Origin: a bacterium
GTDB taxonomy: Bacteria; Patescibacteriota; Minisyncoccia; Minisyncoccales; CG1-02-41-26
Assembly (NCBI GenBank): GCA_043802745.1
Contig: JAZDKU010000041.1
Span: 1-43,160, forward strand
Reading direction: 5' to 3'
Length of the DNA: 43,160 bases
Shown here: positions 20,988 to 29,447 of the stretch, piece by piece
Layout: each line of letters starts with the position of its first letter
How positions within the stretch are numbered: position 1 is the first letter of the stretch
Made by a program: the position numbers and the translations under genes
Notes under the pieces: model-generated
Database searches by the model: none
Seen by the model: the letters and a program-made list of their open reading frames with translations, nothing else
Told to the model about the DNA's origin: nothing

Positions 20988-22811
20988 ATGAGTAGATATA
21001 TTTTAGGCATAAGTTGCTTTTACCATGACTCGGCTGCTGTTTTATTAAAAGATGGAGAAATTTTGGCTGCTTGCCAAGAAGAAAGATTTACCAGAAAAAA
21101 GCAAGACTCATCTTTTCCTAAAAACGCAGCTGATTATTGTTTGAAAGTAGCCAATATAAAAGCTAGTGATCTTGAATCAGTAGCTTTTTATGATAAGTCG
21201 TTTTTAAAATTTGAGCGATTATTAGAGACATATCTGCAATATGCGCCAAAAGGGCTAATTTCTTTTATTAAATCAATGCCAATTTGGATGAAGCAGAAGA
21301 TTTGGATAAAAGAACAAATTAAAAAAGAGCTTGGTTTTACTGGCGAGATAATCTTTCCTGAACACCATCAATCGCATGCGTCCTCGGCTTTTTTCCCCTC
21401 GCCATTTCATAAAGCTGCTTTTTTAACAATGGATGGCGTGGGAGAGTGGGCAACTACTAGCTTTGGTGTGGGAGAAGGCAACAAAATAAAAATAATGTCG
21501 GAAATTAACTTTCCGCATTCTTTGGGGCTTTTGTATTCAGCATTTACTTATTACACCGGTTTTAAGGTGAATTCAGGGGAGTATAAAGTAATGGGCTTAG
21601 CTCCCTATGGCGAGCCGAAATATAAAGATTTAATTTTATCTAAAATTGTTGATTTAAAAGATGATGGTTCTTTTAAGTTAGATATGGATTATTTTAATTA
21701 TTGTTCTGGTTTAACAATGACCAGTGAAAAATTTCACAAGACCTTTGGCGGTCCACCCCGTAAAAAAGAATCGCAGTTAACACAAAAAGAAATGGATTTG
21801 GCTCGTTCTGTACAAGAAGCAACCGAAGAGATTGTTTTGAAAATTGCCAAACACATTAAAAAAGAAACCAATCAAGATTATTTATGTTTGGCGGGCGGGG
21901 TGGCTTTGAATTGTGTGGCTAATGGCAAGTTATTGCAAAGCGGATTATTTAAAGATATTTGGATTCAACCCGCAGCTGGTGATGCTGGAGGGGCTTTGGG
22001 GGCTGCATTATTTGCCTGGTATCAGTGTTTAGGCAACGAGAGAATAGCTGATAATATTAATGACTTTCAAAAAGGTTCTTATTTGGGCCCAGAATTTAGC
22101 CAAGAAGAGATTAAGAAATATTTAGAAAGCAATCAAATTTCTTATCGCCAGTTAAATTATCAAGAAATAGTAGAAACAACCGCTGATTTAATAGCTCAAC
22201 AAAAAGTAGTTGGTTGGTTTCAGGGAAGAATGGAATTTGGGCCAAGGGCTTTAGGGGGGCGGTCAATTTTAGGGGACGCTCGTTCGGTTGAAATGCAGAA
22301 AACCTTGAACTTGAAAATAAAATTTAGAGAGAGTTTTCGGCCTTTCGCGCCATCGGTTTTAGCTGAAAAAGCAAGCGATTACTTTGAAATTGATAGAGAA
22401 AGTCCATATATGCTTTTAACAGCGCAAGTTAAAAAAGATCTTCTTCGCGAAATGACAAAAGAGCAAGAAAATTTATTTGGTTTGGAAAAACTCAATGTGC
22501 CACGCTCAACTATTCCAGCGATTACCCACATTGATTATTCAGCTCGTTTGCAAACTGTTAATAAAACAACTAATCCATTATATTATCGCCTGTTAGAAGT
22601 TTTTGACCAAAAACATAATTGTCCAGTTATTATTAATACTTCTTTTAATGTGAGGGGTGAGCCGATTGTTTGCTCTCCCAAAGACGCTTATCTGTGCTTC
22701 ATGAGAACAGAAATGGATTATTTGGTTTTGGGTAATTTTTTACTGGATAAAAAACAGCAAAAACAATTACAAAAAGACAGTAATTGGAAAAAAGAATTTG
22801 AGCTTGATTAA
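20988..22811 (+). CDS. O-carbamoyltransferase, NodU/CmcH/SxtI family
   Basis: ILGISCFYHDSAA, QEERFTRKK, EHHQSHASSAF, DGVGE, SGEYKVMGLAPYG, AGGVALNCVANG, GRMEFGPRALG, INTSFNVRGEPIV; ends FELD. Confidence 0.95.
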   Translation: MSRYILGISCFYHDSAAVLLKDGEILAACQEERFTRKKQDSSFPKNAADYCLKVANIKASDLESVAFYDKSFLKFERLLETYLQYAPKGLISFIKSMPIWMKQKIWIKEQIKKELGFTGEIIFPEHHQSHASSAFFPSPFHKAAFLTMDGVGEWATTSFGVGEGNKIKIMSEINFPHSLGLLYSAFTYYTGFKVNSGEYKVMGLAPYGEPKYKDLILSKIVDLKDDGSFKLDMDYFNYCSGLTMTSEKFHKTFGGPPRKKESQLTQKEMDLARSVQEATEEIVLKIAKHIKKETNQDYLCLAGGVALNCVANGKLLQSGLFKDIWIQPAAGDAGGALGAALFAWYQCLGNERIADNINDFQKGSYLGPEFSQEEIKKYLESNQISYRQLNYQEIVETTADLIAQQKVVGWFQGRMEFGPRALGGRSILGDARSVEMQKTLNLKIKFRESFRPFAPSVLAEKASDYFEIDRESPYMLLTAQVKKDLLREMTKEQENLFGLEKLNVPRSTIPAITHIDYSARLQTVNKTTNPLYYRLLEVFDQKHNCPVIINTSFNVRGEPIVCSPKDAYLCFMRTEMDYLVLGNFLLDKKQQKQLQKDSNWKKEFELD

Positions 22812-22816
22812 AACAT

Positions 22817-29200: not shown

Positions 29201-29447
29201 AATATCGCAAAACCAACAGCCAAATATAAAACAATATATAGAAAAAGCCAAAATTGATCTAGTCATTAATATTACTGATGAGGAATTTGTCAATTATATT
29301 CATGATGATTACTTAATCAGACGCAAAGCCGTTGACTTTAATATTCCCCTACTCACTAATTTGCAAGCTACTAAGCTTTTTGTTAAATCCATTGCTACCT
29401 TGAAAGTAGGGGATTTAAAGATAAAATCATGGGACGAGTATTACTAG
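26241..29447 (+). CDS. carB: Carbamoyl-phosphate synthase large subunit
   Basis: [79 protein letters not shown], C-terminal MGS-like domain. Confidence 0.97.
   Translation: [1068 protein letters not shown]

Follow-up and report, generated by a model that had tools for sequence, protein, structure and literature searches.

A carbamoyltransferase cassette with a putative dedicated carbamoyl-phosphate supply in a patescibacterial envelope locus

In a patescibacterial genome of 729,340 bp (45 contigs, 93.3% complete, 0.19% contaminated), we found an O-carbamoyltransferase (CT) gene and genes for two small membrane proteins, SxtJ and SxtK, in one locus with both genes of a carbamoyl-phosphate synthase (CPS), carA and carB. 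The window, that is the whole stretch of DNA analysed here, is the entire 43,160-bp contig C41. We consider it probable that this locus is a mobile carbamoylation cassette equipped with a dedicated supply of carbamoyl phosphate (CP) and used for carbamoylation of the envelope. The combination of a private CPS with a CT is best supported as a variant that joins two established themes, CPS dedicated to one pathway and carbamoylation of the NodU type. A literature search (supplements excluded) found no paper on a CPS within a carbamoyltransferase or polysaccharide cluster, nor on such a system in Patescibacteria.

The cassette, its synthase and a predicted complex

In Pfam and NCBIfam searches, the genes for the CT, SxtJ, an SGNH enzyme, SxtK, a RAYT protein, CarA and CarB proved to be intact and co-oriented on the + strand, as the original prediction had claimed. 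From the CT to carB, the genes overlap or are separated by gaps of at most 31 nt, and across 11036-35508 all sizeable open reading frames (ORFs) in the ORF list lie on the + strand. The features discussed below are as follows.

20988-22811, + strand: CT, an O-carbamoyltransferase of the TobZ/NovN/GdmN/NodU family with a Kae1-like N-terminal and a YrdC-like C-terminal domain (PF02543, PF16861, PDB matches)
22817-23209, + strand: SxtJ-family small membrane protein, 130 aa (PF19588, 34.8 bits, cut-off 24.4)
23193-24254, + strand: membrane-anchored, circularly permuted SGNH enzyme, 353 aa (Pfam halves swapped, AF2, Foldseek)
24260-24418, + strand: SxtK-like DUF5989 protein, 52 aa, one transmembrane helix (PF19451, 79.5 bits, cut-off 27)
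24421-25188, + strand: REP-RAYT insertion unit, with the RAYT gene (24450-25172) between inverted hairpins (24421-24441, 25168-25188)
25195-26235, + strand: carA, glutamine-hydrolysing CPS small subunit (TIGR01368, 456.9 bits, cut-off 307.35)
26241-29447, + strand: carB, CPS large subunit (TIGR01369, 1477.7 bits, cut-off 1027)
29457-32976, + strand: GT9 heptosyltransferase-like gene, gmhA, hldE-kinase and hldC-gmhB fusion, the ADP-heptose pathway (Pfam, NCBIfam)
20964-37200, no strand: strain-specific island, flanked by a conserved methyltransferase gene (20359-20982) and a GT1-like gene (37332-38354)

The ORF of the CT opens at 20964, and the start at 20988 is inferred from the homologues, which begin there. 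The protein matched PF02543 over positions 2-346 of 346 (E 5e-101, 338.9 bits) and PF16861 over 1-170 of 170 (E 2e-73, 246 bits), and its full-length PDB matches were NovN (E 7.5e-94), GdmN and TobZ. Across 29 CT sequences including that of the window, mean column identity was 72%, and H126, H127, H130, D149, D332 and G418-P419-R420...R425 were invariant; we take these residues to be the counterparts of the metal-binding and catalytic residues of TobZ. GPRALGxRS is a named motif of the NodU/CmcH/TobZ O-carbamoyltransferases in the literature. TobZ, NovN, GdmN, NodU and CmcH thus share with the window CT the two-domain architecture, this motif and the HHxxH/D residues. They are, however, soluble enzymes that tailor antibiotics or Nod factors from the housekeeping CP supply, whereas the window CT has two small membrane partners, its own CPS and no other visible use of CP in its genome. 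With CTs from Bacteroidota, Chloroflexota, Acidobacteriota, cyanobacteria, Planctomycetota and further groups, the window CT shares 60-72% identity, but with CTs from elsewhere in Patescibacteria only about 53%, an identity pattern that speaks for horizontal spread.

Of 80 related loci, 73 have SxtJ after the CT and 60 contain DUF5989. In the published saxitoxin clusters, sxtI-sxtJ-sxtK(-sxtL) form the same trio in the same order as at the window, with a GDSL/SGNH gene after it; the window differs in having no toxin genes and in having carAB attached. The papers on these clusters call SxtL a GDSL lipase and leave SxtJ and SxtK uncharacterised, thought to work with SxtI, which agrees with the earlier statement that the two have no established function. 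On DUF5989, our literature search found no paper.

When the CT, SxtJ and SxtK were co-folded as three chains, the ipSAE was 0.85, compared with 0.05 for the best of three controls; 98% or more of the contacts were common to the runs, and the pLDDT of the partners was at least 81. Among solved complexes, 58 of 80 pass the mark used for such co-folds, as against 2 of 110 mismatched pairs; with custom alignments, these counts are only rough. The model supports binding of SxtJ to both the CT and SxtK. In it, the tail of SxtJ, including Y110 (the sole invariant SxtJ residue), contacts CT residues 120-124, 168-177 and 222-233, which are adjacent in sequence to the invariant HHxxH motif, and SxtJ and SxtK may accordingly dock the CT on the membrane near its acceptor site. 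Of the complex originally envisaged, which also took in the SGNH enzyme, three chains were modelled (CT, SxtJ and SxtK), and it is their docking that is predicted.

Both CPS subunits reach equivalog level with all domains present. The translation of carA contains the Cys of GICLG and the HPE motif, and CarB, free of stops, comprises two ATP-grasp halves, an oligomerisation domain and an MGS-like domain (Pfam). This C-terminal MGS-like domain (28941-29447) scored 121.5 bits with the C-terminal regulatory domain of human mitochondrial CPS1, well above the 51.3 bits obtained with that of E. coli CarB. Among the best-scoring carB relatives, many bear the name Woesearchaeota or Nanoarchaeota.

The gene between sxtK and carA matched Y1_Tnp and REP_Tyr_transpos (Pfam, NCBIfam) and is bracketed by two 21-nt hairpins which, read directly in the sequence, are mutual reverse complements; the genome has four paralogues of the RAYT gene, and the hairpin core occurs in it 7 times. 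The unit is a later insertion, and since RAYT sits between inverted REP hairpins, carA originally abutted sxtK. Without the unit, sxtK and carA would be spaced by about a dozen bases, an arrangement also present in the metagenome locus L216.

Consumers of carbamoyl phosphate and linkage in relatives

We searched the whole genome in six frames for families that were matched in 14 of 14 control genomes, except for the non-universal CT family and arcC. carB and the CT each occurred once. OTCace_N (PF02729) and OTCace (PF00185) had no match genome-wide, indicating that neither pyrB nor argF is present in this 93.3% complete genome, and the genome therefore has no aspartate or ornithine carbamoyltransferase match for the CPS to feed. 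Likewise, no match in the whole genome was obtained for dihydroorotate dehydrogenase (DHO_dh, pyrD), pyrC (pyrC_multi), pyrE or carbamate kinase (arcC), and argG and Pribosyltran gave matches below cut-off only. A regular expression for the 5-phosphoribosyl-1-pyrophosphate (PRPP) motif had no match but was uninformative, and the Pfam Pribosyltran search took its place. Within the window, Pfam scans of 33 non-nested ORFs of at least 100 aa and the 52-aa SxtK-like ORF found no pyr or arg gene; these 33 are part of 49 listed ORFs, of which 16 nested or overlapping ones were left unscanned. Because no further CP-using enzyme was detectable, carAB most likely serves the one CT.

The original prediction had noted no pyr or arg genes near the cassette and had asked whether the genome holds pyrB, pyrC, argF or other carAB copies; the former is confirmed for the scanned ORFs, and in the assembled genome neither these three genes nor a second carB was found. 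The stronger claim of the prediction, that the CPS serves surface carbamoylation only, stands to the extent that the CT is the sole detectable CP consumer, while exclusivity is blocked by an orphan pyrF and by the 93% completeness.

The cassette block is a strain-specific island. In G433, a genome of the same genus, the flanking methyltransferase and GT1-like genes (63% and 69% identical) lie about 2 kb apart, compared with 16.3 kb in the window. None of the island genes (20964-37200) was matched in the 40 kb of G433 compared, and carB, CT and OTCace are all absent from G433. Of the family genomes sampled, 0 of 7 had carB and 1 of 22 had a CT, that one being only 39% identical. The G+C content of the island, 0.32-0.39, is similar to that of the genome, 0.37.

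In a large protein collection, the nearest carB proteins were 89%, 80% and 69% identical to that of the window, the nearest CTs 87%, 83% and 82%, and the nearest SGNH proteins 79% and 61%. Cluster look-up placed the 89% carB, the 83% CT and an SGNH protein from the cluster of the 79% match each on a contig of 74,109 bp. A Candidatus Pacebacteria metagenome-assembled genome has carB (MDD4990302), SGNH (MDD4990308) and CT (MDD4990310) on a 68,334-bp contig, with accessions that span eight. The carB-CT linkage in these two close relatives is thus read from an equal contig size of 74,109 bp and from near-consecutive accessions, respectively, and the gene order is inferred. Neither carB at 80-89% nor CT at 82-87% was among two order-level samples (251 and 401 genomes), and a metagenome scan returned carB matches of at most 63% identity.

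Among 80 metagenome loci selected by carB similarity alone (58-63% identity), three have cassette parts beside carAB: L216 (68% G+C) reads CT-SxtJ-SxtK-carA-carB, L179 reads carA-carB-SxtJ-SxtK and continues into polysaccharide export genes, and L231 has carB and the CT 3.6 kb apart. When 80 genome loci were instead picked by CT similarity, carB lay immediately upstream of the CT in one (L120). In a FastTree phylogeny of 118 carB rows, L179, L216 and L231 fall in one well-supported six-row clade and the window carB in a separate clade with P0002-P0006 and P0009, which implies that the linkage of carAB with the cassette arose at least twice. A single CT-linked carB clade was thereby ruled out, at least two origins being needed. 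Rows L071, L181, L185, L194, L201, L203 and L207, in which the longest ORF was not recognised as carB, had been dropped from the tree, as had the duplicates L064, L066 and L018.

A different CP source takes this place in other loci. G192, which has no carB, carries an ornithine carbamoyltransferase (OTC) gene (TIGR00658, 285.2 bits, cut-off 280.85) directly upstream of SxtJ-CT-SGNH-SxtK in an operon with heptose and glycosyltransferase genes. OTC-like genes adjoin the cassette in L097 (Komeilibacteria) and L105 (Melioribacteraceae), and in G358 an OTCace match begins 1.3 kb after the CT. An OTC without CPS or carbamate kinase would make sense as a means of releasing CP from citrulline. Judged by gene context, a CP source, either carAB or OTC, thus recurs beside the CT cassette elsewhere.

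Across a phylum sample of 301 genomes, carB was found in 38, OTCace in 69 (a tally that includes the unpublished genome G154) and the CT in 24; seven of these 24 CT genomes have carB and five more have OTCace. When the phylum and order samples are taken together, nine genomes have carB without OTCace, and five of the nine have a CT (G000, G071, G158, G166 and G509). G071 and G509 are both 100% complete and combine carB and CT with no OTCace, pyrD or pyrF; G071 carries carA too, while the carB of G509, 48% identical to that of the window, has no carA beside it. The rule that carB without OTCace implies a CT was tried and given up: it held in 4 of 5 genomes of the phylum sample and in only 1 of 4 of the order sample. 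Within the order of the window, OTCace occurs in 5 of 9 CT-bearing genomes and carB in none, and 1 of 16 same-order and same-class genomes of the phylum sample has OTCace. Three same-order genomes with carB and neither OTCace nor CT were observed at locus level, G341:C22 (L258), G403:C72 (L262) and G471:C45 (L261); carA stands beside carB in G341 and G403, and carAB of G341 lies amid housekeeping genes (Mur ligase, class II tRNA synthetase).

Several findings weigh against a dedicated supply for envelope carbamoylation. Half of the CT genomes of the phylum sample (12 of 24) lack carB, OTCace and arcC alike, which means that a private CP source is not obligatory, and four of the nine genomes with carB and no OTCace have no CT (G189, G341, G403 and G471). 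A strong pyrD match is present in four of the same nine genomes (G341, G166, G158 and G189). Of the seven genomes in the phylum sample that have both CT and carB, only the present one has them adjacent, the other six being non-adjacent. Within the locus, the terminator-like downstream REP hairpin ends 7 nt upstream of the carA start codon. Elsewhere in the genome, an orphan pyrF (TIGR02127, 160.8 bits, cut-off 110.6) lies on contig C35 at 1128-1967 (- strand), and this genome, alone among the family members compared, thus has the first and last steps of UMP synthesis, while the four steps between were not found; a pyr operon may lie in the unassembled 7% of the genome. Finally, when the two nearest genes per side were tallied for 29 loci (those among the 80 whose flanks each reached 3.5 kb or more, in order up to a size cap), the 116 proteins next to the cassette matched 158 Pfam families, none of them dominant, the most frequent being GDSL (5), F5/8-C (5), TPR (4), epimerases (3) and OTCace (2).

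Much of this bears on the alternative that carAB opens an ordinary route to pyrimidines or arginine, whose remaining genes are unassembled or too divergent, and that its adjacency to the CT is incidental. The orphan pyrF is of equivalog quality, the assembly is incomplete and in 45 contigs, patchy pyr genes are usual in carB-bearing relatives (pyrD and OMPdecase each in 5 of 9), and OTCace accompanies carB in 33 of the 38 carB-bearing genomes of the phylum sample. However, the alternative requires four to five separate genes all to be missing, and no ancestral pathway is visible in the relatives: carB is absent from the sampled family genomes, pyrF is lacking in 5 of 5 family relatives examined, and OTCace is absent from G433, the same-genus genome in which, among genus and family relatives, it was tested. 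Moreover, carAB lies within the island that G433 lacks, and pyrF lies on another contig, where its neighbours are gmk-like and ribA-like genes and no pyr genes. We regard this pathway explanation as distinctly improbable and prefer a CPS that supplies the CT.

SGNH enzyme, acceptor and related systems

In the mechanism that we propose, CarAB would form CP from glutamine, bicarbonate and ATP, and the CT, by the chemistry of its family, would use CP and ATP to form carbamoyl-AMP and place the carbamoyl group on a hydroxyl. Judging by the co-fold, SxtJ and SxtK would keep the CT on the cytoplasmic side of the membrane, and because they would hold it there, the acceptor is probably membrane-bound, for example a lipid-linked sugar; it may conceivably belong to the heptose glycan encoded downstream. 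The outward-facing SGNH enzyme might then trim or move the carbamoyl group.

The SGNH ORF spans 23097-24254, with a likely start at 23193. H170, G255-D256-S257, N285 and N319 were invariant in 40 homologues, with the blocks in the order H-S-G-N. The AlphaFold (AF2) model has a mean pLDDT of 90.3, and all 10 SGNH matches of Foldseek at E<=0.001 were AlgJ, AlgX/AlgKX or PatB1 chains, the best being 4o8v (E 1.2e-6, TM 0.44/0.54). According to a review, AlgJ and AlgX are SGNH O-acetyltransferases with a circular permutation, and the AlgI/AlgJ/AlgX and PatA/PatB systems are analogous and both depend on an MBOAT protein. These systems have in common with the window a type-II-anchored SGNH fold and the H-S-G-N order, and they provide the best structural matches; in contrast to them, the scanned window ORFs include no MBOAT or AT3 gene (the MBOAT search was confined to the window), and the active-site motifs differ. 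The GTSYS, block III Tyr and DxH motifs of the AlgX family are missing, and the window enzyme has GDS(F), Asn319 and E-N-G-H (ExxH); therefore, we did not file it as a member of the AlgX/AlgJ family.

The SGNH relatives in Trichodesmium and Okeania loci have the two halves in canonical order, and in the relatives of family f32 the S-G-N half was matched near the N-terminus. The CT-linked SGNH family thus exists in two forms, the H-S-G-N form of the window and a canonical cyanobacterial form (L131:6939-8012; L125:3746-4891 and 5168-6250), which at the sequence level is a sign that a circular permutation took place inside one family. Since close relatives keep the canonical order, the circular permutation may be independent of that in AlgX/AlgJ, that is, convergent. 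We also considered whether the window enzyme is the same as the cyanobacterial sxtL-like genes and rejected this, as only the S-G-N half aligns and those genes are canonical (hhalign, domain tables). The comparison concerned SGNH ORFs at the sxtL position in Oscillatoriales loci, relative to which the window enzyme is permuted, and SxtL itself stood outside it. Of 80 cassette loci, 22 had an SGNH enzyme of the window kind within the flanks retrieved, 7 of these matches being weak.

The SGNH enzyme invites a second explanation, the relay put forward in the original prediction, in which SxtJ and SxtK pass the carbamoyl group through the membrane to the external SGNH enzyme, which loads it onto the finished glycan, as MBOAT-SGNH systems do for acetyl groups. 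Its N-terminal anchor and block order, its uniform Foldseek matches, the permutation and MBOAT dependence described for the Alg and Pat systems in the review and the predicted complex of CT, SxtJ and SxtK all fit such a relay. On the other hand, the TM-scores are modest, the AlgX-family motifs are absent, the canonical order in close relatives suggests that the permutation may be convergent, and presence in only 22 of 80 loci makes the SGNH enzyme non-core. In addition, SxtJ and SxtK total about 4-5 helices and have no known acyl-carrying residue. A relay of this kind therefore seems to us very unlikely. In a broader version, CT-SxtJ-SxtK(-SGNH) would be a mobile, self-sufficient machine, spread across bacterial phyla and bringing its own CP source into genomes otherwise devoid of one, and its membrane subunits would hand a carbamoyl group or a carbamoylated lipid-linked acceptor to an outward-facing SGNH transferase. 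This too we hold to be doubtful and quite unlikely; if true, it would be the carbamoyl counterpart of MBOAT-SGNH O-acetylation and would give SxtJ and SxtK their first function.

Sugar genes occur on both sides of the cassette, in keeping with the surface-glycan setting noted earlier. Upstream are GFO, DegT, epimerase, GT1, UDP-glucose dehydrogenase (UGDH) and methyltransferase genes (Pfam). Downstream, the ADP-heptose route is complete (TIGR00441, 218.7 bits, cut-off 209.45; TIGR02198, 363.7, cut-off 345; TIGR00213, 165.6, cut-off 149.6) and is followed by an aminotransferase gene and a radical SAM gene. Heptose genes also adjoin the cassette in G071 and G192 (both of family f32) and in L127. 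Heptose as a general acceptor was rejected, as heptose genes occur in 1 of 80 cassette loci outside the candidate phyla radiation (CPR) and no neighbour family dominates; for the window, a heptose glycan as acceptor is a local guess only. The idea of a glycan target thus remains plausible through the local heptose genes, but the neighbours of the cassette vary widely across other phyla.

It could instead be that the target of the cassette is a conserved part of the envelope, or some small molecule, rather than the neighbouring heptose glycan, with carAB still feeding the CT. The high identity of the CT across phyla and among the aligned sequences speaks for this, as do the highly variable neighbours and, in the accounts of the saxitoxin clusters, the action of the same trio on a small molecule. 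Nevertheless, heptose-pathway genes adjoin the cassette here and in the three loci just named, polysaccharide export genes adjoin it in L179, and the high CT identity may stem from recent transfer and not from a common acceptor. On balance, we judge this acceptor hypothesis to be unlikely, though worth keeping in mind.

Arginine- and pyrimidine-specific CPS exist in Bacillus and Lactobacillus. There, the CPS is encoded beside the pathway that it feeds, as at the window; the difference is that the pathway here would be O-carbamoylation and that the two classical consumers were not found. To our knowledge, Patescibacteria have no lipopolysaccharide (LPS). In Pseudomonas, WapO/PA5005 is held in the literature to carbamoylate core heptose with CP from CarB, yielding 7-O-carbamoyl heptose. 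This LPS inner-core system resembles the window in placing a NodU-family CT in a heptose glycan locus. The housekeeping carAB of Pseudomonas sits elsewhere, however, and the likeness is one of gene context only (GT9 and ADP-heptose genes).

If carAB does serve the CT, a CPS of central metabolism (4.3 kb of a 0.73-Mb genome) would have been kept or acquired solely for envelope decoration in an ultra-small bacterium, and such retention would imply that this decoration is of great importance to its bearer. The recurrence of carAB or OTC beside the cassette would provide a simple genomic rule for predicting carbamoylated envelopes, and the predicted CT-SxtJ-SxtK complex suggests a role, open to testing, for two proteins without a known function ever since the first accounts of the saxitoxin clusters.

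Some further genes of the window were observed in passing. At 13753-15465, a hexapeptide-repeat acyltransferase and a DegT-type sugar aminotransferase are fused into one protein of 570 aa. The UDP-glucose dehydrogenase-like gene at 18485-19375 (296 aa) has the N-terminal and central domains only and is 83% identical in G433; it is followed by a 345-aa ORF without a clear family (19341-20378). The ORFs at 8131-9642 (503 aa), 38296-39042 (248 aa) and 39881-41083 (400 aa) had no Pfam match, and the last of these is conserved in G433 at 47%.

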